Positions 2,486 through 48,466 of a stretch of DNA of 64,000 nucleotides are shown here, piece by piece (position 1 is the first letter of the stretch; each line of letters starts with the position of its first letter). This DNA is from Bacillota bacterium (lineage in GTDB: Bacteria; Bacillota_I; Bacilli_A; ML615J-28; CAG-698): NCBI GenBank assembly GCA_016280895.1, contig JAEEHM010000036.1, forward strand, positions 1,367 through 65,366, written 5' to 3'. The notes under the pieces are model-generated. The model did no database searches, was not told the DNA's origin, and worked only from the letters and a program-made list of their open reading frames with translations. A program made the translations under genes and the position numbers.

Positions 2486-3257
2486 CATCAGTTTCTTCAT
2501 CTTCTAATTCATCTTTATATATCTTCTTATCAAACAAGTGGAATAAATTAGACATACGTTTATATACTAAATATGTAATAATAGATACACCTAAGCTTAA
2601 TAGCGCATTAAAAGGAAGTGCACCAAATAATACATATCTAATATTATAATTACTTTCATTAACTCCTGGTATCATTTCTAACATTGACACAAACACATTA
2701 ACATTACCACCAAAGAATAATGTAATATATGCAGGTACTAAAATAAAGTAATTAGCAACACATCCAACAACAATCCAAGCCAAAGCTGCAAAAGCTAACG
2801 ATACAAGTGCGCCTTTTCTTGTTTTGTGCTTTACATAAATAATTGAAGATATCAATAATACTGCAGATGATATAATTAAATCAGCAAGTTCTCCTACATA
2901 GAAGGTACCAGAAAACGGAATAACTGCTACTGTTCTAATTAGAATAATAATCATTCCTTCTACTGGGCCTAATAAGAAGCCGCCTAATAATATTGGTAAA
3001 TTAGAAAAGTTGATTTTTAAAAACGACGGAAAGATAGGAAGAGAAAACTTAAGTGTTAAATAGAATATGATAGAAAGTGTCGCAAATATAGCGATACTTG
3101 TCATATGTCTAATCTTTTCTCCTCTTTTCTTCTTCTTAAAGCTTTTAAAGAAATATACAAAACTTAAAACAACAAGACCAACGAAGAACAAAATCATCAT
3201 AATAATCATTATTGTTGTTTTGTTTTCTTTCATAAAATCGGCAAAATTTAAAAACAT
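2469..3257 (-). CDS. ribU: ECF transporter S component, riboflavin-specific (RibU-like)
   Basis: 262-aa polytopic membrane ORF. It lies directly downstream of an FMN riboswitch with AGGAGG 6 nt before the ATG, which sets the substrate assignment. Confidence 0.75.
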   Translation of the reverse strand: MFLNFADFMKENKTTIMIIMMILFFVGLVVLSFVYFFKSFKKKKRGEKIRHMTSIAIFATLSIIFYLTLKFSLPIFPSFLKINFSNLPILLGGFLLGPVEGMIIILIRTVAVIPFSGTFYVGELADLIISSAVLLISSIIYVKHKTRKGALVSLAFAALAWIVVGCVANYFILVPAYITLFFGGNVNVFVSMLEMIPGVNESNYNIRYVLFGALPFNALLSLGVSIITYLVYKRMSNLFHLFDKKIYKDELEDEETDEKKVA

Positions 3258-13894: not shown

Positions 13895-14089
13895 TTACTC
13901 TTTTTCTACTTTCTTTTTTACTTTCTTTTTTAAATCAACCCTCGGTAAAAGAATAATTCTTTTACAGCCCATACATTCTAATTTATAATCAATACCTGTT
14001 TTTAATACCTTCCATTCATTAGAACCACATGGATGATTCTTTTTAAATTGAAGGATATCTCCTACATCATAAATATTCGCACTATTCAT
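13895..14089 (-). CDS. DUF951 family small protein (YyzM-like)
   Basis: 64 aa. YDVGDIL.FKK.HPCGSNEWKVLKTGIDYKLEC.GC matches the conserved DUF951 pattern, which is typically origin-proximal in Firmicutes. Confidence 0.7.
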   Translation of the reverse strand: MNSANIYDVGDILQFKKNHPCGSNEWKVLKTGIDYKLECMGCKRIILLPRVDLKKKVKKKVEKE

Positions 14090-14879
14090 ATTTGTTTTCC
14101 TTATAATCTATTCTTTCAACACCAACTCTAATGTTGTATTTGTTGCAAATTTCATATATACGTTTTCTTAAAGCACGTTCTACAATATGTTTTGTTTCAT
14201 AATTAGTCTTAGCACTAACTTTGATAATAACATTTCCACCTATAAAATCTTCAATACCATTTACATTAGGCCCTTCCACAATTTGTGGATAGTCTTCTTT
14301 TAAACTACGTAGCTTTTCTTCTAATTTATTGATAAATTCTAATGTATCTCTTGTGTTTTCAATTGGAATTGTGACACTAGCACTAATTGGATTCTTAGAA
14401 TAATTAATTACTTCTTTAATTAATCCATTTGCGATTGTTTTTATTTCACCATTAGATGCTAAGATTTCTGTTCTATTGATAGAAATACTAATTACTTTAC
14501 CTTTAAAGTCGTTGATACATACATAATCATCTACTTCATACATATTAGTAAATATTGTATTCATACCAACAAAGACATCATTTAATAAGCTATGGAAGCC
14601 TAAACCAGCAATAGCAAGAATTGTGCAGAATATAACAAGACCAATAGTTGGATCCATACCCCATATAGCAATAATCACAAAGATAAATATTGCTGTAAGT
14701 AAGAATCTACAAATATTATAAATAAGTGAAAGCAAAGAAATTGCTTTATTAGACTTACCTTTCTTAGTACGATTAAATATAAATTTTAAAATAGCGAAGA
14801 TAACAATTGCGCTAACAATCGCAATTAATGTGAAAATTAAATCCTTAGCGTTGTTTTTAAACCATTCGATTATTGGCAT
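14082..14879 (-). CDS. Small-conductance mechanosensitive channel (MscS family)
   Basis: Three N-terminal TM helices followed by an MscS beta-domain pattern (DDYVCINDFKGKVISISINRTEILASNGEIKTIANG). Confidence 0.75.
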   Translation of the reverse strand: MPIIEWFKNNAKDLIFTLIAIVSAIVIFAILKFIFNRTKKGKSNKAISLLSLIYNICRFLLTAIFIFVIIAIWGMDPTIGLVIFCTILAIAGLGFHSLLNDVFVGMNTIFTNMYEVDDYVCINDFKGKVISISINRTEILASNGEIKTIANGLIKEVINYSKNPISASVTIPIENTRDTLEFINKLEEKLRSLKEDYPQIVEGPNVNGIEDFIGGNVIIKVSAKTNYETKHIVERALRKRIYEICNKYNIRVGVERIDYKENKYE

Positions 14880-14891
14880 ATTATCTCCTTT

Positions 14892-15668
14892 CTATTCTTG
14901 ATTATTAAAGATAATCTCTTTAGCAAGTTCTCGATATTCCTTTGAGCCCTTTGAATTAAACGCATATTGTAATACTGTTTGACCATGCATTGGTGCTTCT
15001 TGTAAATGTGTTGAACGATTAATGATTGTTTTAAAAGTTTTATTTGGAAACATTTCTTTTACTTCTTCAATAATCTTATAACCAAATAGATTTCTATTAT
15101 CAAGTTTAGTTAATAATACACCTTCAATTGTTAAAGACATTGAAAGTTCATTCTTATTTTTTTGAATTTGATTGATCTTATTAACCATTTGTGTTAAAGC
15201 ATCATATGCATAATATTCACATTCTACTGGAATAATTACAGAATCTGCTGCAAATAGCGCATTATCTACTAGTATTCCTAAAGTAGGTGGACAATCAATT
15301 AAAATATAATCATACACTTCTTTTAAATCTTTTATTTTATTAAATAAAATTAATTCATTATCTTTCTTATTTAATAATATCTCATATGCATCAACTAGTT
15401 TTACAGAAGATGGAATAATTTCAAATTTACTATCTAAATTACGATAGATAACATCACTTGCATTAATATCTTTTGTCATTAAATCGAAGCTTGTTGCATC
15501 AATCAATTCTCTTGATATTCCTAATCCTATTGTTGCATTAGCTTGAGGGTCTAAATCAATTACTAGAACCTTTAATTTCTTGTTCGCAAATGCAGCTGCT
15601 AAATTAATTGTGGTTGTTGTTTTACCAACACCACCTTTTTGATTAGTAATCGCAATTATCTTGCTCAT
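14892..15668 (-). CDS. soj: Chromosome partitioning ATPase ParA/Soj
   Basis: MSKIIAITNQKGGVGKTTT deviant Walker A, DLDPQANAT, IDCPP. Lies downstream of mnmG-rsmG as in the canonical cluster. Confidence 0.92.
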   Translation of the reverse strand: MSKIIAITNQKGGVGKTTTTINLAAAFANKKLKVLVIDLDPQANATIGLGISRELIDATSFDLMTKDINASDVIYRNLDSKFEIIPSSVKLVDAYEILLNKKDNELILFNKIKDLKEVYDYILIDCPPTLGILVDNALFAADSVIIPVECEYYAYDALTQMVNKINQIQKNKNELSMSLTIEGVLLTKLDNRNLFGYKIIEEVKEMFPNKTFKTIINRSTHLQEAPMHGQTVLQYAFNSKGSKEYRELAKEIIFNNQE

Positions 15669-15681
15669 ATTCCTCTCCTTA

Positions 15682-16341
15682 TTATAGTGGTTTTTTCTTT
15701 ATTTGCGCATATGGCCTTGGATAAATCTTATTTGTTTCTTTATCTTTCAAAAATTTAATTAATGAATGTCTTCCATATTCTTCTAGATCATATTCATAAA
15801 CATCTACAAGCTTCACATTAAGTGCCTTAATTGCACCATTTGCACCTTCTAACTCTTCTTTGTAATTAGATCCTTTATATCCTATAAAGTATCCATTCAC
15901 TTTTACAAGTGGAATACATAATTCAAGTAAGATACTTAAATTACTTACAGCTCTTGCAGTAACAATATCAAAATATCTATTTTTAATATTCTCAGCACGA
16001 TCATTAATTATTTCAACATTCTCTAATTTTAATAATTCAACTAAGCTTTCTAAAAACTTGCATCTTTTTAATGTTGGTTCAATGATGGTTAATTTAATAT
16101 TTGGATACATAATCTTTAAAGGAATCGATGGAAAACCTGCACCACTACCAACATCACATAAACTGATATCTTTTAAATCCATGATATTTTCTAAAGCAAG
16201 ACTGTCTAAGAAATGTTTAACATATACTTCATTTTCTAAAGTAATACTTGTTAAATTGTATTTTTCATTCTCACTTATTAGAAATTCATAATATTTCTTA
16301 AAAGCTTCATTATTATAAATATCAATTATTTTTGTTTTCAT
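15682..16341 (-). CDS. rsmG: 16S rRNA (guanine527-N7)-methyltransferase RsmG (GidB)
   Basis: DVGSGAGFPSIPLKI SAM motif. Position is after mnmG, with an overlapping stop/start. Confidence 0.92.
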   Translation of the reverse strand: MKTKIIDIYNNEAFKKYYEFLISENEKYNLTSITLENEVYVKHFLDSLALENIMDLKDISLCDVGSGAGFPSIPLKIMYPNIKLTIIEPTLKRCKFLESLVELLKLENVEIINDRAENIKNRYFDIVTARAVSNLSILLELCIPLVKVNGYFIGYKGSNYKEELEGANGAIKALNVKLVDVYEYDLEEYGRHSLIKFLKDKETNKIYPRPYAQIKKKPL

Positions 16342-18223
16342 TGCGTTTATAACTTTCTAAATATACAAGTAAGATAGAAATATCTGCTGGATTAACTCCG
16401 CTTATACGACTTGCTTGTGAAATTGTTGCTGGAAGCACCTTCTTTAATTTATCTCTTGCTTCACTTGCAATATTTGCAATCTCATCATAGTTGATATCTG
16501 CAGGTATCTTCCAATTTTCCATACTTTGCATCTTACGAGCTAAAGTATATTCCTTCTTTATATATCCTTCATATTTAATTTCTATGATTAATTCTTCTTC
16601 CTCGAACTTATCTAAATCAAATTTTAAATCAAACAAATATGAAATATCACTTAAATTAATCTCTGGACGTTTTAATAAATCATATGCAGATACTTTTTCT
16701 GATATCGCACCCTTATTATTCTTACTTAAATATTCATTTACCTCAGGTTTTGGATTAATCTTACTTTCTTTTAAGGTATTATAGATATCTTCAAACTTCT
16801 TTCTCTTAGCTAAAAATCTATTATATCTTTCATCAGATATCAGCCCAGCATAATGACCATATTTAAGAAGTCTTTCTTCGCTATTATCATGTCTTAGTAT
16901 TAATCTAAATTCAGCACGAGATGTTAACATACGATAAGGATCTCTAACACCTTTAGTAATTAAATCATCAATTAATACACCAGTATATGCTTCATCACGA
17001 CGTAATACAAGTTCTTTCATACCACGATTGTTCAAACTTGCATTGATTCCCGCGATTAAACCTTGACACGCTGCTTCTTCATAGCCACTTGTACCATTAA
17101 CTTGACCAGCAAAATATAAGCCTTCTATCTTTTTGGTTTCTAATGTATTTTTAAGCTCAAGTGGATTAATAGCATCATATTCAATTGCGTATGCATATTT
17201 TGTGATTGTACAATGTTTGAAACCTGGGAGTGAATGTACCATTAATTCCTGTACATCATGTGGCATAGATGTTGAAAAACCTTGTATATACATTTCATCA
17301 ATTCCTGTTCCTTCAGGTTCCACAAATAATTGATGGCGTGGTTTATCACTAAAACGCACAATCTTATCTTCAATTGATGGACAATATCTAGGTCCAACTC
17401 CTCTTACTAATCCAGAATACATACTACTTTTACCAAGATTCTCTTTTATTATTCTGTGAGTTTCATCAGTTGTATATGTTAAATAACATTTAACTTGCTT
17501 ATCTTTTGGTTTGATATCTTCAATTTTAGTTTCTTCGCTGAAACGATATAGTTCATCGTCGCCATATTGTTCTTCCATTACATCATAATCAATTGTGTCA
17601 ATCTTAATACGAGGAGGTGTTCCTGTTTTAAGTCTGATTAATTCTAAGCCTTCATCTCTTAAGCTTTGACTAAGAAGTGAAGTTGTAGGCTCTTGATCAG
17701 GACCAGATGGTGTTTTTGTGAACCCACATAAAATACAAGAATCTAGATATGTACCTGATGCAATAATCAATTTCTTACAATAATACTCTTCATTATCAAC
17801 TACTATTCCTTTAATATGCTTCTTAGCATTAATCTTTTCAGTTATAATTGCAGTAACATATGCTTCTTTAACCTCTAAGTTTTCTGTGTTTAAGCACAAA
17901 TCTTGCATATATTTAGGATAATATGTTTTATCAGCTTGGGCACGAAGTGCTCTAACAGCTGGTCCTTTGGAACTATTTAGCATCTTTAATTGTAGTAATG
18001 TCTTGTCAGTAGCACGTGCCATCTCGCCACCAAGTGCATCAATCTCTCTTACTATTACTCCCTTTGCGGGACCACCGATAGATGGATTGCATGGCATATT
18101 ACCAATTCTTTTAATACTACCGACAATCATTAATGTTTTTTGATTTGTGCGCGCACCGGCTAAAGCTGCTTCAATTCCGGCATGGCCTCCACCAATAACT
18201 ATAATATCATACATTTTATTCAC
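16322..18223 (-). CDS. mnmG: tRNA uridine 5-carboxymethylaminomethyl modification enzyme MnmG (GidA)
   Basis: YDIIVIGGGHAGIEAA FAD motif, GQVNGTSGYEEAA, and a C-terminal GidA-associated domain. Confidence 0.97.
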   Translation of the reverse strand: MNKMYDIIVIGGGHAGIEAALAGARTNQKTLMIVGSIKRIGNMPCNPSIGGPAKGVIVREIDALGGEMARATDKTLLQLKMLNSSKGPAVRALRAQADKTYYPKYMQDLCLNTENLEVKEAYVTAIITEKINAKKHIKGIVVDNEEYYCKKLIIASGTYLDSCILCGFTKTPSGPDQEPTTSLLSQSLRDEGLELIRLKTGTPPRIKIDTIDYDVMEEQYGDDELYRFSEETKIEDIKPKDKQVKCYLTYTTDETHRIIKENLGKSSMYSGLVRGVGPRYCPSIEDKIVRFSDKPRHQLFVEPEGTGIDEMYIQGFSTSMPHDVQELMVHSLPGFKHCTITKYAYAIEYDAINPLELKNTLETKKIEGLYFAGQVNGTSGYEEAACQGLIAGINASLNNRGMKELVLRRDEAYTGVLIDDLITKGVRDPYRMLTSRAEFRLILRHDNSEERLLKYGHYAGLISDERYNRFLAKRKKFEDIYNTLKESKINPKPEVNEYLSKNNKGAISEKVSAYDLLKRPEINLSDISYLFDLKFDLDKFEEEELIIEIKYEGYIKKEYTLARKMQSMENWKIPADINYDEIANIASEARDKLKKVLPATISQASRISGVNPADISILLVYLESYKRNENKNN

Positions 18224-37825: not shown

Positions 37826-41016
<3,191 letters not shown>

Positions 41017-41023
41017 AAGACCT

Positions 41024-41233
41024 CTATTTAATCACAAATTCTTGTTTTTCAACAACAATATGATCATTTGGATATAATTTTCTGCCTCTTCTGCAGTCAA
41101 TTTCGCCATTTATAAGCACTTCGTTCTCGCTTAAATAAATTTTGGCTAAAAATCCGCTGTCAATTATGCCAACAAATTTTAAAAATTGCCCAAGTGTAAT
41201 ATATTCTGTAGTAATTTTAACTTCTTTTGCCAT
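41024..41233 (-). CDS. yaaA: S4-domain RNA-binding protein YaaA
   Basis: 69 aa. ITLGQFLKFVGII.SG..AK......V.INGE...RRG.KL. Sits in the conserved position upstream of recF. Confidence 0.85.
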   Translation of the reverse strand: MAKEVKITTEYITLGQFLKFVGIIDSGFLAKIYLSENEVLINGEIDCRRGRKLYPNDHIVVEKQEFVIK

Positions 41234-41285
41234 AATTTTCTCCTGTTTTTTAGCCCTTTTTCTCTTTCTTATTATATATATACAT

Positions 41286-41296
41286 ATTATACCATA
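41286..41296 (-). promoter_or_regulatory. Extended -10 promoter of the yaaA-recF-gyrB-gyrA operon
   Basis: Minus strand TATGGTATAAT, about 50 nt upstream of the yaaA ATG. Confidence 0.55.
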
Positions 41297-41403
41297 AAAT
41301 TTACCAATTTTCCAGCATTATTTTAACGAATTTTCTCATTTTTTTCATTAATTTTGCACTTATCTTCCAAAGATAGAAAATAAAGACATTAAAATTACTA
41401 AAT

Positions 41404-42690
41404 ATTTATGGTTTTATGTATATACATACAGATAATCTGCCATATTTATGCTATTTCTGGTCTTATTTTAGATGTAATTCCATATTTACTCCTTTCTTTA
41501 AATAAATATATACATAAATATTTATATATTTACTCGTTATTATCATAATATCGGCTAAAATTGTGTATGGTTTTATGTATTTATGTATAAAATCTGGCTT
41601 ATTGGGGTTTAAATATAAACTAAATTAAGTTGAATCTTCTATTACTGCCTGTTTTATTGTCTGTTAGTGCTAATTTAATTACAAAAATTGTATGGTTTTA
41701 TGTATTTATGTATGAGTTATAGCCAATAAAATGACCATATTTGCATCAATTTAACAGAAAACCACATATAAATATCTACATAAATACGTATTTATGCATA
41801 TATTTACAATTAAAGCAGCAAAAACGCGTATGGTTTTATGTATTTATGTATAAATTATGCTCAATTTATGCCATTTTACAGTATGAACCCGATATTTTAG
41901 CTAGAATTATTTACTAATCATGATCTATAAATAGTAAAATCAGTTATTTACAAGCCAGTACAAGGGAAATTTAGGGCTAATTTAGGCTATTTTTCTGTTA
42001 TAAAGCAGCCGAAAAGGGCAAAAACACCACAAAAATCATAAATATTGCTATACATATTTATGTATTTATGTATCTATTTAAATATTTTTATATTTATTTA
42101 CTTATTTCCTTCTTGATTTAATGAAAAATATAGTTTATAATATATATTGTAAATGTTAAGAATCAGATTGTTGAAACGATCAACATTGAAAGATTTATAC
42201 ATATTTACATAAATACATAATATTTTAAATACATTTTTACATATTTATGTATAAGCATAATTACATTTATATGTATTTATGTATAAAAATAATTGTTTTA
42301 AGCTTTTCATCTGCTTTTAAAGGTCTTAAAACCGGTCAAATTGGCCCAAAAATGGCCAAAAATTATTTCGCTTATAATCATTTTGAAAGTCCGGGACAAT
42401 TTAGTTTACCTTAAAAGGCCAAAAAACGATTCTAGGGCAAAATTTAGTCAGTTTTCGAGGTTTTAATTTTAACTGATTTTTGTAATTGCATTAAAATATC
42501 GGCCGATTACAGAAAAAATGACCTTTTAAAAGATCAAAACCAAGAAAAAGTAGATTGAATTTGTGGTCAAATTTTCTAAAATCATGGTAAAAATGTGTCA
42601 TTTGTATGTATTTATGTATAGTTGTATTTATTCTTTTATGTATGTATTTAAAGATTTATTTATGTTTGTATGTATATACATAAATATGTA
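41404..42690. repeat. Dispersed array of TATGTAT / 8-bp-periodic repeats (candidate centromere/operator field)
   Basis: GTATGGTTTTATGTATTTATGTAT occurs identically at 41565-41588, 41690-41713 and 41828-41851. Related copies lie at 41407-41428, 42055-42073, 42238-42253, 42266-42285, 42603-42620, 42635-42650 and 42655-42690. Inverted copies lie at 41511-41520, 41777-41798 (palindrome TACATAAATAC/GTATTTATGCA) and 42196-42219. Confidence 0.85.
42113..42141 (+). promoter_or_regulatory. Consensus-like sigma-A promoter inside the repeat field
   Basis: TTGATT, 17 nt, TATAAT on the plus strand, pointing toward the RHH/ParA-like genes about 570 nt downstream. No convincing ORF follows it directly. Confidence 0.45.
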
Positions 42691-42712
42691 AACAATCTAG
42701 TAAGGAGGAATT

Positions 42713-43003
42713 ATGAATACACCATTTAAAAAGAGAACAGATCCATTTAAAAACGATACTGTAGCTGCTAAGGAAACAGAAGTTATAGTTGAAGAACCTG
42801 TAAAGGAAGTTAAAGTCGTAGAAACACCTAAACCAAAGGCAAAAGTTGTTGAAGTTAGTGATGAAAGTAGAGAAAAATACACTGCTACTATGGACAAAGC
42901 ATTACGTAAACGTATTAAATTAGCTGCAATTGAGGCTGGAGTGCAAGTTTCTACGTACATTGAGATGGCTTGTCTAGAAAAATTGAGTAGAGAAGGTAGA
43001 TAA
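42713..43003 (+). CDS. Ribbon-helix-helix (ParG/omega/CopG-like) small DNA-binding protein
   Basis: 96 aa. Disordered Lys/Glu/Val-rich N-terminus, then a beta-alpha-alpha pattern KYTATMDKALRKRIKLAAIEAGVQVSTYIEMACLEKL. Strong SD TAAGGAGG. Its stop lies 2 nt before the ParA-like ATG. Confidence 0.6.
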   Translation: MNTPFKKRTDPFKNDTVAAKETEVIVEEPVKEVKVVETPKPKAKVVEVSDESREKYTATMDKALRKRIKLAAIEAGVQVSTYIEMACLEKLSREGR

Positions 43004-43005
43004 AA

Positions 43006-43788
43006 ATGTCAACAATTTCAGTATTTTGTAAGAAAGGTGGCGTAGGAAAGACTACTTTCATTGGTTATTTAGGACATTATTATGCTAAACAAGGCAAAAA
43101 GGTCTTAATTATAAGTGCGGATGACCAAAATAGTATCTTTAAAATCTTTGGTGAAGACGATAAAATCTTCGAAAGCGACGATAATTACTTAGAATTCTAT
43201 ATTGCAGGCCGTGCAGAGCTTGGAGATTTGCTGATTCCTGTTCGTGAGAACCTTTATTTGATAAAAACATTGAATACAGACAAGTTATCAATGAAATTAA
43301 CTTATGAAAGAGCTCAAGAAAAGGTAATTAAGAGCATGTTTAAAGAATATGCAACATTCTTTGACTATATTTTAGTGGATTTTCCACCTTCAAGTAGCCG
43401 TTTAACTGAAATATTACTAGAAATAAGTGATCATGTTTGTATTGTAGTAGGCCTAGATACCCTAGGATTAGGTGGTTTTTGGAACACAATTCAATATTTT
43501 ATTGATAATGAGTTGGATTTAGAGTCAATTAAGTACATAATTCCTAATGGATATAGTAAAAATAGACGTGCTCCTAAGGTTTCTTTAGAGAAATTACAGG
43601 AACAAGTACAAGAATTTACTCCTCATGCAAAGCTTTTGAACCCAATTGCGGATAGAAGTATCGTTAAAAACCTTCAAGCTGAAGGAATTAGTGCTTTTGA
43701 TGAGGTTGAACTTCCTCCATATGACCGTGGACTTAAGGAACAACTAGAAAAAGACTTAAAAGCTTTGTTTGATGAATTAGAATTTTAA
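43006..43788 (+). CDS. ParA/MinD-superfamily ATPase, small type (no N-terminal HTH)
   Basis: ISVFCKKGGVGKTTF deviant Walker A, LIISADDQNS, and ILVDFPPS Walker B-like. 260 aa. Confidence 0.85.
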   Translation: MSTISVFCKKGGVGKTTFIGYLGHYYAKQGKKVLIISADDQNSIFKIFGEDDKIFESDDNYLEFYIAGRAELGDLLIPVRENLYLIKTLNTDKLSMKLTYERAQEKVIKSMFKEYATFFDYILVDFPPSSSRLTEILLEISDHVCIVVGLDTLGLGGFWNTIQYFIDNELDLESIKYIIPNGYSKNRRAPKVSLEKLQEQVQEFTPHAKLLNPIADRSIVKNLQAEGISAFDEVELPPYDRGLKEQLEKDLKALFDELEF

Positions 43789-43793
43789 TATAA

Positions 43794-43827
43794 AAAGAAA
43801 AAAGAACCATTGATTTGGTTCTTTTTC
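43794..43827. terminator. Bidirectional intrinsic terminator between the ParA-like gene and dnaN
   Basis: AGAACCA-ttgatt-TGGTTCT hairpin flanked by an A-run and a T-run. Confidence 0.7.
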
Positions 43828-43830
43828 TTA

Positions 43831-43850
43831 TTTATTTATGTATTTATGTA
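43831..43850. repeat. Extra copy of the TTATGTATTTATGTA repeat downstream of the ParA-like gene
   Basis: TTTATTTATGTATTTATGTA lies between the terminator and the dnaN stop, so the repeats bracket the gene pair. Confidence 0.7.
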
Positions 43851-43854
43851 AATA

Positions 43855-44976
43855 TTAGATTCTAACAGGCATATTTAATTGCATGTGATTTACATCATAA
43901 TCACTATTTATGATAAATGGTTTTACTTCACCGGTAAAATGAATAGTGATTTCATTTGAATCAAAGGCTTTTAATGCATCTAAGAAGTTCTTAGCACTAA
44001 ATGCAGTTTCAAAATTTAAGTATTTAGAGCAGCTAATTGGTTTAACCTTTTCTAAAGATCCACCAATTTCACTTGCTGAAGATGATATTAAGATCTCATT
44101 TTGTTCATTTATAGTAAATTTAATTACATTTGCTAAATCATTTGCTACAAAAAGTGATGCTCTATCGATCGCATTTATTAATTCTTGCTTGTTAAATTTG
44201 ATATCTGTAATAAATTCAGTAGGAATTAGACTCTTTGTATTAGGGAAATTGCCTTCAATTAGTCTAGTTTGGAATAAAATATTCTTATATTTGAACAAAG
44301 CTCTAGTTTGAGTGAAGTGAATTTGAACAATTTCTTGTACTTCTTCTACTATCTTATTCAATTCATCTAGAGATTTAGATGGGATGATTGCTTTTATTTG
44401 GGCATTCATGCCTTCAATCTTCATATATTTCTTAGCTAATCTAAAGCTATCTGTCGCAATTGCTTCTAATTTATCGCCATTTACAGTGAAGCTTACACCA
44501 GTTAAAACCATTTTAGCTTCTGATGGAGAAGTTGCAAAAGCAGTTTTCTTGATAATTTGTTTTAAATTGATACCATCTAAGTAAATAAAGTTTTGACTAT
44601 CATCGAATGCGATGTATGGAAAGATTGATTTATCATGTAGATTTAGAGTAAATGTAGATTGATCAGCTAATATTTTTACAGAATTCTTTTCAAATGTTTG
44701 AATAAGAAGAGAATCACAATCACATTTTCTTACAATATCACAAAAATATTTACCTGGTAATACAACTACACCTGTTTCTTTTATTGACAAATCATCGCTT
44801 GCTTCTATCTTTGTTTGGATAGAAATATCAGAATTTGATGCTGTTAGAGTTAAAAAGTTATTTTTAACATCTAATTTCATACCAGTAAGAATTGGCATTT
44901 GTGGTTTATTAGATAATGCCCTGCTGACATTATTCAAATTGTTTAACAACAACTCTCGTTTTATTTGGATTTTCAT
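43855..44976 (-). CDS. dnaN: DNA polymerase III beta sliding clamp
   Basis: 373 aa. N-terminus MKIQIKRELLLNNLNNVSRAL...PIL.G. Three-domain length. Immediately downstream of dnaA. Confidence 0.95.
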   Translation of the reverse strand: MKIQIKRELLLNNLNNVSRALSNKPQMPILTGMKLDVKNNFLTLTASNSDISIQTKIEASDDLSIKETGVVVLPGKYFCDIVRKCDCDSLLIQTFEKNSVKILADQSTFTLNLHDKSIFPYIAFDDSQNFIYLDGINLKQIIKKTAFATSPSEAKMVLTGVSFTVNGDKLEAIATDSFRLAKKYMKIEGMNAQIKAIIPSKSLDELNKIVEEVQEIVQIHFTQTRALFKYKNILFQTRLIEGNFPNTKSLIPTEFITDIKFNKQELINAIDRASLFVANDLANVIKFTINEQNEILISSSASEIGGSLEKVKPISCSKYLNFETAFSAKNFLDALKAFDSNEITIHFTGEVKPFIINSDYDVNHMQLNMPVRI

Positions 44977-45035
44977 TTTATTTCTCCTTTGAATTTATTT
45001 ATTTTAAATTATTTTTATTATTAAGAATGTTAATA

Positions 45036-45044
45036 TGTGGAAAA
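45036..45044. promoter_or_regulatory. DnaA box (1 mismatch) in the dnaA-dnaN spacer
   Basis: TGTGGAAAA, the complement of TTTTCCACA, compared with consensus TTATCCACA. Confidence 0.5.
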
Positions 45045-45046
45045 GT

Positions 45047-46435
45047 CTATTTTAACAGCTTTTCTTTGATATATTGGATATCGTTTTTAGTGTTATTATT
45101 CTCATTCAACATATCTTTTATGCGTTCATAGCCGTAATTTACAGTTGTATGATCTTTTCCACCAAAGATTTCACCAATTTTTACTAGTTGTAATTTAAAT
45201 TCTGTTCTTAAAATGTAGAAGCAAATGTTTCTTGCATACACAATATTTGGTTTTCGACTTGCAGAAAGTAAATCAGTCTTACTAATTTGGAAATATGATG
45301 ACACTACATCTTTTAATTTCTCTACTGCTTGATCATCTTTATTTTCACTGTTTTTATTCTTTGGCATAATACCATCTAGAGTATAATACACGTTTTCAAC
45401 AGTGAATGGAAGATTCATTGATACACAATATGTGATAAATCTTCTAAGAGCGCCTTCTAATTCTCTTATATTGTTAGTGAAATTGTCTGCAATTACTTCT
45501 AAGCAGTCATCACTTACATCACTTACATTAGAAATCATGAATTCTAGCTTACGTCTTAAGATATTAACACGTAAATCTTTATCAGGAGATTGAATATCTA
45601 CAACAATTCCCCAGCTGAAACGTGATACTAATCTATTCATTAGTTTTAATTCACCTACTGGACGGTCACTTGTAATAACAATTTGTTTGTTATTTTCGTG
45701 TAAATATTCAAATACCTTAAAGAATTCTTCTTGAGTTCCAGGCTTATTAACTAAGAATTGAATATCATCGACAAGTAATACATCAGCTTGACGATATTTA
45801 TTATAGAAAAATTCAATATTCTTTGTATCTTTCTTTGTGTATACAAAATAATCTTCAGTAAATTGTTGGGCAGTTGTATAAATTACATTTGCATTGATGT
45901 TTCTATCTAAGATATAGTGGCCAATTGCCATCATTAGGTGAGTTTTACCCAAACCAACATCACCAAATATATACAAAGGATTTAAAACTGCATAAGGAGA
46001 TTCAGCAATTTTCATTGCTGTCACAAAAGCAAACCTATTTGATTCACCAACAACGAAATTATCAAAAGTGAATTCAGCTCTTAGTTTTCTTGAACTTCTT
46101 TCAAAGTTCATAGCATCTACTTGTGCTAATTTTTCTGTTGCTTTGTTTTCTTTTTCAGCATCTTCTTTTGTGATAAACTTAAATCCTGTCTTTGTTTGTA
46201 ATAAATCAGTTAAAATTTCGTTCATTCTTCTTGAATTAAACTTTTCAATCAAGAGTTTTGTTAGAGGATCTTTCACAATTACGTAAATATAATTGTTTTC
46301 GAACTTTAATACTTCGCGAGATTCACCAAATCTTTCTTCGAAGTTATCTAAATTCTCTGTTGGAGTTTCTTTTTTTAATTGATCTAAAACTTGTTCTAGA
46401 TATTTCTTAGCTTCTAAATTAGTCATAATATCCAC
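45047..46435 (-). CDS. dnaA: Chromosomal replication initiator DnaA
   Basis: FDNFVVGESNRFA, GDVGLGKTHL, LLVDDIQF and the C-terminal DNA-binding helix (DHTTV.YGYERI). A GTG start at 46435 lies 8 nt after AAAGGA. Confidence 0.97.
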   Translation of the reverse strand: MDIMTNLEAKKYLEQVLDQLKKETPTENLDNFEERFGESREVLKFENNYIYVIVKDPLTKLLIEKFNSRRMNEILTDLLQTKTGFKFITKEDAEKENKATEKLAQVDAMNFERSSRKLRAEFTFDNFVVGESNRFAFVTAMKIAESPYAVLNPLYIFGDVGLGKTHLMMAIGHYILDRNINANVIYTTAQQFTEDYFVYTKKDTKNIEFFYNKYRQADVLLVDDIQFLVNKPGTQEEFFKVFEYLHENNKQIVITSDRPVGELKLMNRLVSRFSWGIVVDIQSPDKDLRVNILRRKLEFMISNVSDVSDDCLEVIADNFTNNIRELEGALRRFITYCVSMNLPFTVENVYYTLDGIMPKNKNSENKDDQAVEKLKDVVSSYFQISKTDLLSASRKPNIVYARNICFYILRTEFKLQLVKIGEIFGGKDHTTVNYGYERIKDMLNENNNTKNDIQYIKEKLLK

Positions 46436-46673
46436 GCGAAGAGTCCTTTCTAATTTATCATATCACAAAATAGCAAAAAAATAAAGTGCTAATTTTTAAA
46501 TAATATATTTTTTGATTTTTCCACTTTTCCCCAGAGGATAAATTTTTAATAAGTTTGTGGATAAGTCTAAATTATATCGATACATATAATATAAGAAAAA
46601 GAAACAAAACTAAAAATAACTTGATTATATTTCGCATTTGTAGTAAAATACTATTACGTATGGAGATTATTAT
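46436..46673. promoter_or_regulatory. Candidate oriC core (DnaA boxes plus AT-rich stretch) at the strand-switch point
   Basis: A perfect DnaA box TGTGGATAA lies at 46556-46564. Weaker boxes TTTTCCACT (46517-46525) and GAGGATAA (46534-46541) are present. An AT-rich run spans 46474-46516. Gene orientation flips here. Confidence 0.55.
46457..46467 (-). promoter_or_regulatory. Extended -10 promoter of dnaA
   Basis: Minus strand TGTGATATGAT. Confidence 0.5.
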
Positions 46674-47840
46674 ATGAAAGAATCATGGTTTTCAAAATTA
46701 AATAATAGATTAGGGAAGTTATCACAAACTGCTTTAATATTAATACTTGTTATTTATTCATGTGTACTTGGTGGTATATATGCTCTTGTTACACTAACTA
46801 GATCATATCTTGTAGTACCAAATTATGAGCATGTATATTGGGATGAGGAAGTTAATCCACAAATTACTATTATTGGACGTCGTACTTTCGATTCGGATAA
46901 CAAGATGACTTTAAAATATAGTGTAAATGTAAGTGTTTATGGTCGTATTAGTCCTGCTTCTACAACAGATCCTGGATATGCACTAACAGATTTTAAGATG
47001 AGCGCTGCAACTGTTACATCTACTACATCTAAAAATCCAGCTAATATGTATTATTTTACTGAGTATAAGACTTATACAACTCCTACTACTCACTATTTCA
47101 CCTTAGATAATTCATCTGTAGATCAACATCCATATGAGTTATACACAATGATTCAACATAAAAAAGGCGGAAAAACAAAAATTTCCACTTATAAAGAAGA
47201 TGTCTTTTTATATCCTGATAGCAATGATATAACTAAGATTGATGATTATTTTAGTGCTCCAACTTCTGCTGATGCTACATCTAGAAATATTAAAAAAGGC
47301 GATGAACAAATCGCAAACATTCAATTTATTGCATCTAACCAAAGCGAATATTATTCTGGTGGTGTAAAAATTATCATGGATAAGCTTGGTGCTACATATA
47401 AACATCATATCGATATGCAATCTTGGATATTAACTAGTGATGGAAAATATTTGCCATTTGTGGGAGTATATAGTTATTCTCAACAAAAGACTAATTATAG
47501 TCAATCTGGTATTTCTATTTATAAACAACTTAATCCACAATATATAGTTGCTAAATTGAGATATTATTTCAGTGAAACAGAGTATCAAGATTATTATTTC
47601 AAACAAGCATTTGATAAATTACCTACTTCTTTCCAATCTAGCCCAAATGCAGCAGATGAAATTGAAGATAATAAAACAATCAATAAAGGACTTGTTATTG
47701 GTATATCAATTGGTGCAGCTGTATTAGTATGTGCAATTATTCTTCCATTGACAGTTGTATATATTAATAAGAAAAAGAAAAATAAGGAAACAAATTCTCT
47801 TCCTGAAAACGAGACTTCAGATAGTCCAAATCAGGAATAA
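46674..47840 (+). CDS. Hypothetical bitopic surface protein (N- and C-terminal TM anchors)
   Basis: 388-aa ORF. A TTGATT-17-TAAAAT promoter lies at 46621-46649. A hydrophobic helix sits near each end, with a Thr/Ser/Tyr-rich middle. No recognised motif. Confidence 0.55.
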   Translation: MKESWFSKLNNRLGKLSQTALILILVIYSCVLGGIYALVTLTRSYLVVPNYEHVYWDEEVNPQITIIGRRTFDSDNKMTLKYSVNVSVYGRISPASTTDPGYALTDFKMSAATVTSTTSKNPANMYYFTEYKTYTTPTTHYFTLDNSSVDQHPYELYTMIQHKKGGKTKISTYKEDVFLYPDSNDITKIDDYFSAPTSADATSRNIKKGDEQIANIQFIASNQSEYYSGGVKIIMDKLGATYKHHIDMQSWILTSDGKYLPFVGVYSYSQQKTNYSQSGISIYKQLNPQYIVAKLRYYFSETEYQDYYFKQAFDKLPTSFQSSPNAADEIEDNKTINKGLVIGISIGAAVLVCAIILPLTVVYINKKKKNKETNSLPENETSDSPNQE

Positions 47841-47850
47841 TAAAAAATAC

Positions 47851-47879
47851 TTGACTTATAAAACAAAATAAGATATAAT
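47851..47879 (+). promoter_or_regulatory. Consensus sigma-A promoter of rpmH
   Basis: TTGACT, 17 nt, TATAAT. Confidence 0.7.
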
Positions 47880-47910
47880 AATTAAGCAAGTTTAGTATAG
47901 GAGGTATTCT

Positions 47911-48054
47911 ATGAAGGGATGTTACAGAACATATCAACCTACAAAGTTGAAAAGAAGTAAAGTACATGGATTCCGTGCTCGTATGTCTACAGTAGGCGGT
48001 AGAGCAGTAATCGCAAGAAGACGCGCTAAAGGAAGAAAGAAATTAACTGCATAA
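47911..48054 (+). CDS. rpmH: 50S ribosomal protein L34
   Basis: Not in the ORF track because it is only 47 aa. [47 protein letters not shown], with an AGGAGG SD. Confidence 0.95.
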
Positions 48055-48069
48055 TATATAAGAAACTCG

Positions 48070-48107
48070 GACTACTAGAAAAAACATATATGCTAGTAGT
48101 CTTTTTT
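48070..48107 (+). terminator. Intrinsic terminator between rpmH and rnpA
   Basis: GACTACTAG, a 14-nt loop, CTAGTAGTC, then TTTTTT. Confidence 0.6.
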
Positions 48108-48136
48108 CTTGAATTATTATAGGGGGATTCGTTTTT

Positions 48137-48466
48137 ATGAACAAAAAATATATCTTAAAAGCAAATCATGAAATCGAAGCGCTATTAGCAAAAAAGCATA
48201 GTGTTGGTTCTAAATACTATGTATTGTATTTTGAGCGTACTGATGAAGTTAAAATAGCTGTGTCTGTTTCTAAAAAATTAGGTAATGCAGTTGTTAGAAA
48301 TTATCAGAAGCGTGTGACAAAAGAAATATTGAGAGAATTTTTAGAAGATTATCAAGGATATAGTTTTCTTCTTGTTTGTAAAATCGCAAGTGTTGATCTG
48401 GATTTTGAAAGCAAAAAGACACAAATACAATATGTCCTTAATAAAATGAAAGACTTTAAAGCATAG
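48137..48466 (+). CDS. rnpA: Ribonuclease P protein component
   Basis: 109 aa, basic. Carries the AVVRNYQKR (RNR-like) motif. Sits in the conserved rpmH-rnpA-yidC order. Confidence 0.9.
   Translation: MNKKYILKANHEIEALLAKKHSVGSKYYVLYFERTDEVKIAVSVSKKLGNAVVRNYQKRVTKEILREFLEDYQGYSFLLVCKIASVDLDFESKKTQIQYVLNKMKDFKA

Follow-up and report, generated by a model that had tools for sequence, protein, structure and literature searches.

Repeat boxes beside the replication origin of a Bacillota lineage: a candidate centromere and operator array of an RHH/ParA module

Active segregation of bacterial chromosomes is thought to depend almost always on ParB, which spreads from parS as a CTP-dependent clamp. 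Type Ib systems based on a ribbon-helix-helix (RHH) protein are treated as plasmid devices, with SegAB as the archaeal chromosomal counterpart. A stretch of 64,000 nucleotides from a Bacillota bacterium, here called the window, carries an RHH gene and a parA gene close to dnaN and dnaA, preceded by a non-coding field of short repeats. What are these repeats, and which protein reads them? An earlier note on this DNA interpreted them as the cognate sites of the RHH protein, acting as centromere and operator. The indirect tests (protein fold, selection on the boxes, conservation, flanking arrays) all support that assignment, while the long tandem unit proposed along with it found little support and the field turned out to contain more than boxes.

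Anatomy of the repeat field

The field has a GC content of 23% and its longest ATG-initiated ORF encodes 55 aa. It holds 28 strict boxes (18 TATGTA and 10 TACATA) in 11 clusters. The field and its surroundings comprise the following features:

41234-42712, no strand: whole non-coding field, from yaaA (S4-domain gene) to the RHH gene (ORF list, box map)
41286-41314, minus: promoter-like site for yaaA-recF-gyrBA, TGGAAA-17-TATAAT with extended TG (consensus scan, 10/12 matches)
41415-41428, no strand: distal cluster 1, one plus and one minus box 8 bp apart, part of the degenerate copy at 41407
41511-41516, minus: single inverted box TACATA
41565-41588, plus: perfect 24-mer copy 1, three 8-bp units GTATGGTT TTATGTAT TTATGTAT (TRF period 8)
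41690-41713, plus: perfect 24-mer copy 2, 125 bp (11.9 helical turns) from copy 1
41777-41799, no strand: palindromic pair TACATAAATAC/GTATTTATGCA
41828-41851, plus: perfect 24-mer copy 3, 138 bp (13.1 helical turns) from copy 2
42051-42072, no strand: three-box cluster (minus, plus, plus), immediately 5' of the conserved promoter
42113-42141, plus: conserved sigma-70-type promoter sequence TTGATT-17-TATAAT, facing the RHH gene; best promoter match in the field
42198-42283, no strand: seven-box cluster (four minus, three plus), downstream of the conserved promoter
42316-42500, plus: conserved non-repeat A-tract island (~130 nt), without boxes; GC blocks alternate with A/T tracts
42605-42690, no strand: promoter-proximal clusters, seven boxes (four plus, then plus, minus, plus), abutting the Shine-Dalgarno sequence (SD); candidate operator
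42700-42706, plus: SD AAGGAGG of the RHH gene
42713-43003, plus: RHH gene, 96 aa (homologue alignment, profile match, AF2, Foldseek)
43006-43788, plus: parA, ParA/MinD-family ATPase, 260 aa, starting 2 nt past the RHH stop codon
43799-43826, no strand: bidirectional terminator hairpin common to parA and convergent dnaN
43828-43851, plus: downstream mini-array (TTATTTATTTATGTATTTATGTAA) in the 66-bp parA-dnaN spacer

The 24-mer GTATGGTTTTATGTATTTATGTAT is exact at 41565, 41690 and 41828 and is found nowhere else on either strand of the 64-kb window, in agreement with the three identical copies reported before. The 8-bp period of its units is recovered both by TRF and in the distance histogram. 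All degenerate direct copies listed in the earlier note (41407, 42055, 42238, 42266, 42603, 42635 and 42655) were found again, as were the inverted copies at 41511 and 42196 and the palindromic pair at 41777, and the last clusters do adjoin the SD. Additional inverted boxes are located at 41281, 41423, 42051 and 42677, and a site of two boxes at 43828-43851, flanked by the parA terminator and the 3' end of dnaN, is likewise an addition to that list. The box at 41281-41286 is directly downstream of the -10 element of the yaaA promoter-like site. The seven-box cluster at 42198-42283 forms an inverted repeat with the proximal cluster, with 90-nt arms that are 70% complementary and 313 nt apart. 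Decayed tandem units of 125-160 bp, which had also been suggested, find little support: only ~45 nt around the core can be aligned (64-82% identity, spacings of 159, 125 and 138 bp). Beyond these ~45 nt, similarity among the four units does not exceed that of AT-rich background, and TRF periods range only from 4 to 32 bp.

The two-unit site TATGTATTTATGTA (≤1 mismatch) occurs 10 times in the window where 0.31 sites are expected, a count reached in 0 of 100 shuffles; eight of these sites lie in the 1.48-kb field and two directly 3' of parA. Of 18 exact copies of TTTATGTAT in the window, 16 are inside the field or the parA-dnaN spacer. The whole window contains 17 box pairs with a spacing of 8 or 16 bp, 16 of them in the field and the 17th in the parA-dnaN spacer. 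The field has 18.9 boxes per kb, the remaining intergenic DNA 1.7 per kb and coding DNA 1.07 per kb, and relative to intergenic DNA elsewhere whose GC is equal or lower the density is ~10 times higher. Because site counts and densities exceed chance and are concentrated in the field and spacer, a generic feature of AT-rich DNA, which the earlier note had named as the outcome that would undo its own reading, is rejected within the window.

Several other identities of the motifs were considered. DnaA boxes are ruled out, since no TTATCCACA-like sequence with ≤1 mismatch is present in 41234-42712. By eye, a dif/Xer site was dropped for want of an 11-6-11 dif structure and IHF sites for want of a match to YAANNNNTTGATW. 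An iteron-type plasmid replication origin was rejected as well, the units being 8 bp and not 17-22 bp long and the conserved neighborhood containing no Rep-like gene. A metagenome scan with a 23-mer returned one additional RHH-parA locus and two unrelated GC-rich contigs.

Chromosomal setting and conservation across the lineage

The locus was compared among 31 species-level genomes, Acholeplasmatales-like MAGs annotated as "Bacilli bacterium", and 27 fields were analysed; these are not independent samples because related species share ancestry. As far as the contigs reach, the gene order gyrB-recF-yaaA-[field]-RHH-parA-dnaN-dnaA is found at 31 of 31 species-level loci, and the locus co-diverges with housekeeping genes in the 31 species. 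Judged from gene order and divergence, the locus is chromosomal and vertically inherited, located between dnaN and yaaA next to oriC, and is not a plasmid-like cassette. A plasmid origin of the module was rejected: the closest plasmid ParA proteins are 26-30% identical, and no plasmid relatives of the RHH protein were matched. The following features lie outside the immediate locus:

14892-15668, minus: a genuine soj, after mnmG-rsmG; the next gene is MscS-like, not spo0J/parB
45036-45044, minus: DnaA box TTTTCCACA in the 70-bp dnaA-dnaN spacer, the presumed oriC
46556-46564, minus: perfect DnaA box TTATCCACA, the only one in the window, upstream of dnaA

The order mnmG-rsmG-soj followed by an MscS-like gene is shared by this genome and four other species (five in total). 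No parS (≤2 mismatches) is present in the 64 kb, and no ParB domain was detected in the window ORFs scanned. By its gene neighborhood, soj is an orphan without spo0J at the canonical locus and in the window.

All 27 fields are non-coding and span 0.84-3.2 kb. TATGTA/TACATA occurs in every one of these gaps at 5.4-25 per kb, compared with 0.1-2.0 per kb elsewhere in each locus; in 15 of the 27 it ranks first among over-represented hexamers, and in 24 if a shifted version is counted (scored against an order-2 Markov model of the gap itself). Each locus contains 9-59 boxes in 4-27 clusters over 0.8-3.2 kb, with up to 59 boxes over 2.6 kb in relatives. The 8-bp register holds in all loci and for both orientations. 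Distances between clusters are multiples of 10.5 bp (n=270, Rayleigh nR2=18.2, mean phase -0.6 bp, 24/27 loci). Boxes are found ≤130 bp from the RHH ATG in 26 of 27 loci, and the parA-dnaN spacer carries boxes in nine of 27, with 11 in L046. Among strains, boxes contain 5 of the 245 variable columns while covering 11.2% of the field (p = 6e-8), and they are under purifying selection. Only two variable columns are found in 42634-42712, and the three-box cluster at 42051-42072 is inside the least strain-variable 100 bp of the field (one variable column).

Two further elements of the field are conserved. The -10 element of the promoter at 42113-42141 ends 571 bp upstream of the RHH ATG, and at a strict threshold the same element is located 505-798 bp 5' of the ATG in 18 of 27 loci (1113 bp in L040); in L011 the distance is 571 bp. 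The region shows no excess of promoter-like hexamer pairs (24 versus 21.2 in shuffles), and only this candidate stands out by conservation; it may well be used in expression of the RHH gene. At the opposite end, the site at 41286-41314 is a putative promoter of yaaA-recF-gyrBA, of which the TGGTATAAT segment also occurs in L011 and L013.

The second element is the A-tract island, whose near-invariant motifs are AAATTTCG and AAAA(N)(C/T)GATT. Its nhmmer profile is matched in 27 loci, always on the same strand, and it lies 315-430 bp upstream of the ATG in 19 of the 23 loci measured and up to 956 bp upstream in the remainder. Its A/T tracts are phased at 10.5 bp, and strain variation within it is low. 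As the field holds this island and a promoter 571 bp upstream, operator and promoter logic is more complex than clusters abutting an SD.

The earlier note had left the field unplaced in its origin context; soj without spo0J, the island and the distal promoter were also new to it.

The RHH protein, ParA and their relation to known systems

In an alignment of 22 homologues, the 96-aa protein begins with a basic N-terminus that is conserved (MNTPFKKRTDPF), followed by a variable linker and, at the C-terminus, a ribbon-helix-helix whose predicted DNA-reading beta-strand, REKYTATM, is invariant. The sequence profile matches the RHH protein SvtR (2kel, E = 9.5e-6). In the AF2 model, helices 62-75 and 79-94 are predicted with pLDDT >90 and the N-terminal 50 residues are disordered. 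The top Foldseek matches are all RHH proteins (TM 0.7-0.8 on target), including Arc, CopG, AmrZ and antitoxins. On the model, the protein has an RHH fold; with its flexible N-terminal tail it is a predicted centromere binder of the type Ib kind. The protein of the window has no match in Pfam or NCBIfam. Among its homologues, ParG (PF09274) is hit at E = 0.13 in one of 22 members, below the gathering threshold, Omega_Repress (PF07764) at a sub-threshold E = 0.02 in two of 22, and RHH_10 and RHH_3 each at sub-threshold level in 11 of 22. By these profile searches the protein is outside every curated partition family.

ParA carries a deviant Walker A motif (KKGGVGKT, residues 9-16) and matches the Pfam families AAA_31 (3.9e-24) and CbiA. 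Its AF2 model (pLDDT 83) shows the ParA/MinD fold. McdA, Soj, PF-32, MinD, delta, SegA and TP228 ParA (ParF) all score alike in Foldseek, and a subclass assignment by structure was therefore rejected. As in type Ib, ParA is a small Walker-type ATPase without an N-terminal DNA-binding domain. It is 98% identical between species whose RecF and DnaA are 63% and 83% identical, respectively, and evolves as slowly as GyrB.

Short repeats in direct and inverted orientation next to the operon, another property of type Ib systems, are conserved in the 27 loci. The precedent cited in the earlier note, ParG binding of 4-bp boxes separated by 4-bp AT-rich spacers, agrees with the published description, in which the boxes are direct and inverted (PMC3130281). 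In TP228 parH/OF, such boxes follow an 8-bp register and the ParG tail acts on ParF (PMC3130281). The present module resembles ParF-ParG-parH/OF in its small ParA without N-terminal DNA-binding domain, an RHH binder with flexible tail and boxes in 8-bp register; the array beside the TP228 operon doubles as operator, which by analogy may also apply here. TP228, however, is a plasmid with ~20 contiguous boxes in ~160 bp that are reported not to be curved, whereas the present locus is chromosomal; its boxes, at least 28, are scattered over 1.5 kb in 11 helically phased clusters, and it also contains an A-tract island and an internal promoter. Box sequences differ (TATGTA here, ACTC in TP228), the gene order is reversed and there is no detectable sequence kinship to ParG. 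Placing the RHH gene first is the reverse of the classical type Ib order with the ATPase first, and the sites are dispersed over 1.5-3.2 kb as opposed to compact plasmid centromeres of ~100 bp; both, like location on a plasmid, are customary, not mechanistic, features of type Ib.

The omega protein of pSM19035 is an RHH protein that binds the centromere and represses several promoters (PMC5016525). Its delta-omega-parS system, a type Ib system of Firmicutes, likewise uses short units in either orientation in several separate clusters, and delta is among the Foldseek matches of ParA. In contrast, it has 7-bp heptads and not 8-bp units, three parS of 7-10 repeats on a plasmid, and its genes are in separate operons. 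The Sulfolobus SegA-SegB system is, like the present one, a chromosomal pair of ParA-type ATPase and site-specific RHH binder with sites beside the operon (PMC8682754). The unstructured N-terminus of SegB stimulates the ATPase, and multiple dimers build a higher-order superhelical complex (PMC8682754). SegAB differs in being archaeal, in its two palindromic 23-bp sites directly upstream of segA with limited lateral spreading, and in the ATPase gene being first. SegB was absent from the PDB profile matches of the RHH protein, and no sequence relationship was found.

Like Soj-Spo0J-parS, the module would combine a ParA ATPase with a centromere near oriC and assemble a large nucleoprotein complex there. 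ParB, however, is a CTPase clamp of the HTH type, which is loaded at palindromic parS sites of 16 bp and spreads; the binder here is a 96-aa RHH protein, and the size of its complex would be set by the array itself. Repeat arrays are located upstream and downstream of the operon in pB171 par2 (ParA, RHH-type ParB, parC1/parC2). In R1 parC, the promoter lies between two iteron sets, and ParR-parC forms a helical or ring scaffold. Both arrangements appear to recur here by analogy, although pB171 and R1 are compact plasmid systems (<200 bp per site), R1 uses an actin-like motor, and there is no sequence relationship.

Proposed function and competing explanations

Taken together, the field is probably an origin-proximal chromosomal centromere and operator array of a type-Ib-like RHH/ParA partition module. 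Against this best explanation stand the lack of a curated partition family and of plasmid relatives for the RHH protein, a ParA without subclass, the dispersed sites and the reversed gene order. Conservation of TATGTA boxes in all loci is matched by the invariant REKYTATM strand, which supports pairing the two, and soj without spo0J in five species, together with the missing parS (≤2 mismatches in 64 kb), suggests a need for such a system. From the anatomy, the conservation, the selection on boxes and the two folds we infer a mechanism whose steps are all conditional. Each RHH dimer would read one 8-bp unit (TATGTAT+W), and as the unit is near-palindromic, either orientation would work. Dimers would coat clusters of 2-7 neighboring units cooperatively. 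About a dozen clusters in the window, and up to 27 in relatives, would be presented on one helix face, at multiples of 10.5 bp, in DNA with phased A-tracts, and the bound field could therefore fold into one large partition complex ~2 kb from oriC. The basic N-terminal tail would stimulate nucleoid-bound ParA, so that newly replicated origins are moved apart. Through the clusters that flank the 42113-42141 promoter and abut the SD, the RHH protein may also repress its own operon; both its binding to the boxes and this repression are putative. Spreading along DNA is not known for RHH proteins, and a hard-wired site array may thus do the job of ParB spreading.

An alternative that we consider unlikely assigns the field to the replication origin or to its control, either with RHH arrays and ParA acting mainly on initiation, as Soj does on DnaA, or with the curved, AT-rich field itself as unwinding region or second DnaA assembly site. 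The cumulative GC skew has its minimum near 42 kb, and the field, between dnaN and yaaA, is 2.3 kb from the dnaA-dnaN spacer. The 2-kb GC skew, however, is dominated by the coding strand rather than the replication strand, and skew at 4-fold sites cannot place genes on a replichore, with only 24 G+C sites for dnaA/dnaN and too few also for RHH/parA. Many other species have tight DnaA-box clusters where the gap borders yaaA: L034 has five boxes within 70 bp, including two perfect ones, and further examples are L032, L036, L026, L022, L025 and L046-L048. The field of the window has no DnaA box (≤1 mismatch), and the DnaA boxes of the window, the perfect one and that of the spacer, flank dnaA. 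In 24 of 27 loci one or more DnaA boxes are retained in the dnaA-dnaN spacer, which means that a canonical oriC exists. An origin role would fit the phased A-tracts and curvature, which replication origins often show, but two contact positions distinguish the repeat boxes from the DnaA box, and their 8-bp register is unlike DnaA arrays.

The boxes could instead be transcriptional operators only, for their own operon and perhaps the divergent yaaA-recF-gyrBA, with ParA in another positioning role and no centromere. Most RHH proteins are repressors, among them several of the Foldseek matches, and the positions of the clusters around the 42113-42141 promoter and at the SD, as well as of the one box at the yaaA promoter, would suit such a role. 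A repressor needs few sites, though, and not 9-59 boxes in 4-27 helically phased clusters over 0.8-3.2 kb, and the small genomes of this lineage retain kilobases of non-coding DNA here. Boxes are also present downstream of the operon, and obligate pairing with a translationally coupled, highly conserved ParA plus a basic N-terminal tail is a signature of partition adaptors. We therefore regard operators alone as quite improbable.

Similarly doubtful is that another protein, nucleoid-associated or origin-organizing, binds the TATGTA arrays while the RHH protein reads the island motifs AAATTTCG and the AAAATCGATTT palindrome. The island matches the boxes in conservation, and in many species it includes a 10-bp palindrome, a typical target of dimeric repressors. 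The invariant RHH strand could equally fit the island motif AAAANYGATT, in which case the boxes might belong to another protein, and no computed result ties the RHH protein to boxes rather than island. RHH partition proteins, in turn, typically bind short iterated units, direct and inverted, with 7-8 bp spacing (PMC3130281, PMC5016525), and the arrays adjoin the operon on both sides. The conserved neighborhood contains no other conserved DNA-binding gene; the 388-aa neighbor of dnaA, with hydrophobic segments at its two ends, appears to be anchored in the membrane.

Very little speaks for functionless AT-rich low-complexity DNA, a decaying tandem repeat or a mobile-element or plasmid relic: despite the low GC, TA-rich motifs resembling simple sequence and a ParA/RHH pair of plasmid-like type, the density of the motif, the purifying selection on boxes, the co-divergence of the locus in 31 species, the distance to plasmid homologues and the unsupported long units have already largely refuted it. 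Equally remote is a structured non-coding RNA transcribed from the conserved promoter, which does point into the region, and although the island is conserved on one strand, an Rfam scan of 40900-48200 (E up to 1) gave only a spurious mir-297 miRNA match (E = 0.44), RNAalifold predicted 0 consensus pairs from 28 island sequences, and the sequence from promoter to island, boxes excepted, is unconserved among strains. Moreover, the GC block of the island is a G-run, C-run or palindrome depending on species, and A-tracts and T-tracts replace each other, which is a property of double-stranded DNA and not of RNA.

Starting from the partition module as the preferred explanation, a bolder proposal is offered tentatively: the lineage may have lost ParB and segregate its chromosome with a plasmid-type ParA/RHH pair through a hard-wired kilobase array next to oriC, a bacterial 'regional centromere'. 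Its 8-bp boxes, clustered on one face of intrinsically curved DNA around the A-tract island, would write the size of the complex into the DNA in place of ParB-CTP spreading. The orphan Soj might use the array as well, and since several species have DnaA-box clusters at the far end, segregation might be coupled to initiation through it. Neither this locus nor any ParA/RHH system on a bacterial chromosome is described in the part of the literature covered.

If the proposal is true, a ParA/RHH module that is inherited vertically and found between dnaN and yaaA in at least 31 species has become central to the chromosome cycle of a bacterial lineage. A non-spreading protein could then build a large partition complex from many phased sites on curved DNA. 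A defined centromere could stabilize vectors for uncultured gut and rumen organisms. The finding would also bear on DNA segregation in wall-less and reduced Bacilli, including Mollicutes that lack ParB.

Genomic position and conservation of the RHH-parA locus

The window comes from the origin region of a chromosome. The repeat field is the non-coding interval 41234-42712, and it lies upstream of the genes for a 96-aa ribbon-helix-helix (RHH) protein and a 260-aa ParA-like ATPase.

Genes around the field
41024-41233, minus strand: yaaA
42713-43003, plus strand: RHH gene, between dnaN and yaaA, field upstream
43006-43788, plus strand: parA-like gene, between dnaN and yaaA, starting 2 nt past the RHH stop codon
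43855-44976, minus strand: dnaN
45047-46435, minus strand: dnaA
minus strand: recF, gyrB and gyrA
right side of the window, plus strand: rpmH, rnpA, yidC and jag

The RHH-parA locus is core chromosomal and not a recent insertion. A profile search with the RHH protein recovered 31 species-level genomes, recorded as 'Bacilli bacterium', Acholeplasmatales/Acholeplasmataceae, 'Mollicutes bacterium Phil14' and Coprobacillus sp. CAG:698. The order gyrB-recF-yaaA-gap-RHH-parA-dnaN-dnaA, in which the gap is orthologous to the field, is found in all 31 to the limit of each contig; a contig of GCA_016295295.1 (locus L007) matches the field itself at 100% identity. The module co-diverges with the housekeeping genes. 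The closest plasmid ParA shares at most 30% identity, and no plasmid relatives of the RHH protein were found. Few proteins of the region evolve as slowly as the origin-linked ParA: between the window and loci L011/L012 it is 98% identical, compared with 96% for GyrB, 91% for DnaN, 83% for DnaA, 76% for the RHH protein and 63% for RecF.

Two neighboring genes have features of their own. The gyrB gene (37826-39937, minus strand) encodes an extra acidic N-terminal stretch, some 65 residues long, ahead of the usual ATPase-domain start; close relatives (700-704 aa) share it, and distant ones (643-659 aa) have a shorter version or none. Between dnaA and rpmH, a 388-aa protein (46674-47840, plus strand) keeps its position across the lineage at 20-69% identity. 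It is without a Pfam or NCBIfam match, and its hydrophobic N- and C-terminal segments give it the look of a surface protein anchored in the membrane.

The 96-aa protein is 'hypothetical' in public records, and no Pfam or NCBIfam model matched it above threshold. A profile of 22 homologues matched the RHH regulator SvtR (2kel; E = 9.5e-6), and the best Foldseek matches were exclusively RHH proteins (Arc, AmrZ, MazE, CopG, SvtR). Sub-threshold Pfam matches across the family were RHH_10, RHH_3, 56B_RHH, Omega_Repress and ParG. In the AlphaFold model, helices 62-75 and 79-94 (pLDDT >90) follow a disordered N-terminal half and a segment resembling a strand. The residues R53-E-K-Y-T-A-T-M60, at the position of the DNA-reading strand of the RHH fold, are invariant in 22/22 homologues; the N-terminal MNTPFKKRTDPF is nearly invariant and the intervening linker varies freely. 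The protein thus shares its build with ParG, omega and SegB, in which a flexible ATPase-acting tail is joined to an RHH domain (PMC3130281; PMC8682754). The 260-aa ATPase has a deviant Walker A motif (KKGGVGKT) and a ParA/MinD fold; its ParA subclass cannot be assigned because its structural matches (McdA, Soj, Borrelia PF-32, MinD, delta, SegA and TP228 ParA) all score about equally.

The genome carries an orphan Soj in addition to this divergent origin-linked ParA, the two sharing only 27% identity.

Location of soj
14892-15668, minus strand: soj (E = 1e-44 to 8e-58 against Soj/ParA structures; region 14082-18223)

A true soj, the gene stands in the canonical order mnmG-rsmG-soj and is followed by an MscS-like gene and then, in relatives, by DUF951. 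The order mnmG-rsmG-soj-MscS-like recurs in four further species of the lineage, in one case within a MAG that also carries an RHH locus. No spo0J/parB was found after soj in the window or in four other lineage species (L049-L052), no parS with up to two mismatches within the 64 kb and no ParB domain among the window ORFs scanned. These negatives suggest that the organism lacks ParB, although they fall short of proof.

Box repeats of the field

The 24-mer GTATGGTTTTATGTATTTATGTAT is found in perfect copies at 41565, 41690 and 41828 and nowhere else in the window. The degenerate and inverted copies named in the earlier note are all present and the 8-bp period was borne out, but the 'decayed tandem unit' of 125-160 bp was not, as the likeness ends about 45 nt around the core. 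The two-unit site TATGTATTTATGTA (≤1 mismatch) occurs 10 times against 0.31 expected, a count reached by no shuffle. Eight copies are located in the field and the other two in the 66-bp spacer downstream of parA, a site that the earlier note overlooked.

The strict hexamer box, TATGTA/TACATA, has a density of 18.9/kb in the field, compared with 1.7/kb in the rest of the window's intergenic DNA and 1.07/kb in coding DNA. Much of this other intergenic DNA equals or exceeds the field in AT-richness. Box pairs at a distance of 8 or 16 bp number 17 across the 64 kb; all but one belong to the field, and the exception lies in the spacer. Since boxes and pairs are concentrated in this way, the idea that the repeats are a generic feature of AT-rich DNA fails.

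The gap was measurable in 27 loci, where it is non-coding and 0.84-3.2 kb long; the longest ATG ORF (≤101 aa) reads as translated repeats. Box density is 5.4-25/kb in each gap versus 0.1-2.0/kb in the remainder of the 12-kb locus. With no prior, and with each gap's own order-2 Markov model as background, TACATA was the top over-represented hexamer in 15 of 27 gaps, and TACATA or an overlapping shift (CATAAA, TAAATA) ranked first in 24. Boxes are overwhelmingly 8, 16, 24, 32 or 40 bp apart, in the same and opposite orientation alike. Apart from its central GT/AC, the unit T-A-T-G-T-A-T-W is near-self-complementary, as would suit a dimer with two-fold symmetry. Typically, one or two clusters (boxes in 8-bp register) lie within ~200 bp of the start codon, followed outward by a box-free zone of ~300-450 bp and distally by numerous small clusters (2-3 boxes each; median spacing 94 bp).

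Purifying selection acts on the boxes, and the intervening DNA drifts. Among 11 strains of the window's species, ParA is identical and the fields are 89-100% identical; 5 of 245 strain-variable columns fall inside boxes, which make up 11.2% of the field (binomial p = 6e-8). Separately, two unrelated metagenome contigs of high GC content (54-56%), L054 and L055, each contain the 23-mer TATGGTTTTATGTATTTATGTAT exactly once (at 3080-3102 and 1117-1139, respectively); no RHH/ParA homologue was found on the DNA examined from either.

Cluster spacing was taken from first box to first box of neighboring clusters (n = 270, 27 loci, 27-260 bp). These distances peak at integer multiples of ~10.5 bp (Rayleigh nR2 = 18.2, approximately p = 1e-8), in loci that are related by descent and thus are not independent trials; the sequence between boxes is, however, already ~10% diverged within one species. 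The mean phase is -0.6 bp; 24 of the 27 loci agree in the sign of the signal, which persists once distances that are multiples of 8 are dropped. The perfect 24-mers of the window are 125 and 138 bp apart, i.e. 11.9 and 13.1 turns, and AAA/TTT tracts are phased at 10.5 bp throughout the field. Because cluster distances and A-tracts are both phased at 10.5 bp, the clusters share one face of the DNA, for which curvature is predicted, and within a cluster the boxes spiral round the helix at 8 bp.

Island and promoter

Non-repeat elements of the field
42316-42500 (core ~42336-42500): island, a conserved box-free element (nhmmer profile, island alignment A2)
42113-42141, plus strand (towards the RHH gene): strong sigma-70-type promoter TTGATT-17-TATAAT, -10 ending 571 bp before the ATG

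The nhmmer profile recovered the island in 27 loci, always on the same strand; its distance to the RHH start codon, which lies downstream, is 315-430 bp in 19 of 23 loci measured and up to 956 bp in the others. A structured RNA was considered and rejected (no Rfam match; no pairs predicted by RNAalifold). GC blocks alternate with A/T tracts, and the motifs AAATTTCG and AAAA(N)(C/T)GATT are near-invariant, the latter forming the palindrome AAATCGATTT in many species. Depending on the species, the GC block is a G-run, a C-run or a palindrome, and A-tracts are exchanged for T-tracts, which points to a duplex-DNA feature. The tracts are phased at ~10.5 bp (mean power 7.6 versus 3.7 in coding controls, p = 3e-8). 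In the window, two box clusters flank the island as mutual inverted repeats with 90-nt arms 313 nt apart. Our guess is that the island is a bend, or the site of a second protein, that unites them.

The promoter lies likewise 571 bp before the ATG in L011, at 505-798 bp in 18 of 27 loci (strict threshold) and at 1113 bp in L040. A three-box cluster lies on one side of it and a seven-box cluster on the other, and no other 100 bp of the field varies less among strains than the stretch that holds it. The proximal clusters, too, are overlapped by promoter-like hexamers, so either these or the conserved promoter at 42113-42141 may be the one in use. A hairpin-capable TGTTGA/TCAACA follows the promoter at ~42170-42187; window and L011 both have a short inverted repeat here, of differing sequence.

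Proposed role in partition, and the replication origin

The field and the RHH-parA pair are rather likely to form a type Ib-like partition locus, for which we infer binding, autoregulation, ATPase stimulation and segregation. Type Ib loci comprise a small ParA, a flexible-tailed RHH binder and boxes in 7-8-bp register, which occur in both orientations, adjoin the operon and double as operator (PMC5016525; PMC3130281). The window locus matches the essentials, namely a small ParA, a tailed RHH protein and operon-adjacent boxes. In contrast to type Ib, it is chromosomal, vertically inherited and adjoins oriC, its gene order is reversed, its array, 10-30 times longer, is scattered over helically phased clusters, and it adds the island and an internal promoter. 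Its RHH protein is without sequence kinship to ParG and omega.

A link between the field and initiation is a live minority reading, because in many other species DnaA boxes form tight clusters in the gap, at its yaaA end. L034 has five DnaA boxes in 70 bp, two of them perfect, ~1800-1870 bp upstream of the RHH ATG; further loci with such clusters are L032, L036, L026, L022, L025, L046, L047 and L048. The window's own field has no yaaA-side cluster, and in this organism the field is probably not the origin itself. The cumulative GC skew has its minimum near 42 kb, but skew in this region tracks the coding strand, and skew at 4-fold sites is too sparse for placing dnaA/dnaN on either replichore. 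The field has no DnaA box with up to one mismatch, whereas the sole perfect DnaA box of the window is located at 46556, upstream of dnaA, and a one-mismatch box at 45036, in the 70-bp dnaA-dnaN spacer. This spacer has at least one DnaA box in 24 of 27 loci.

No earlier description of the locus was found in the full-text literature searched. Among known systems, the closest functional counterpart is SegAB of archaea, in which a chromosomal ParA is paired with an RHH protein and the sites adjoin the operon (PMC8682754). Extensive spreading has not been observed for RHH centromere binders (PMC8682754), so a hard-wired array may be this lineage's route to building a large origin-proximal complex without ParB.
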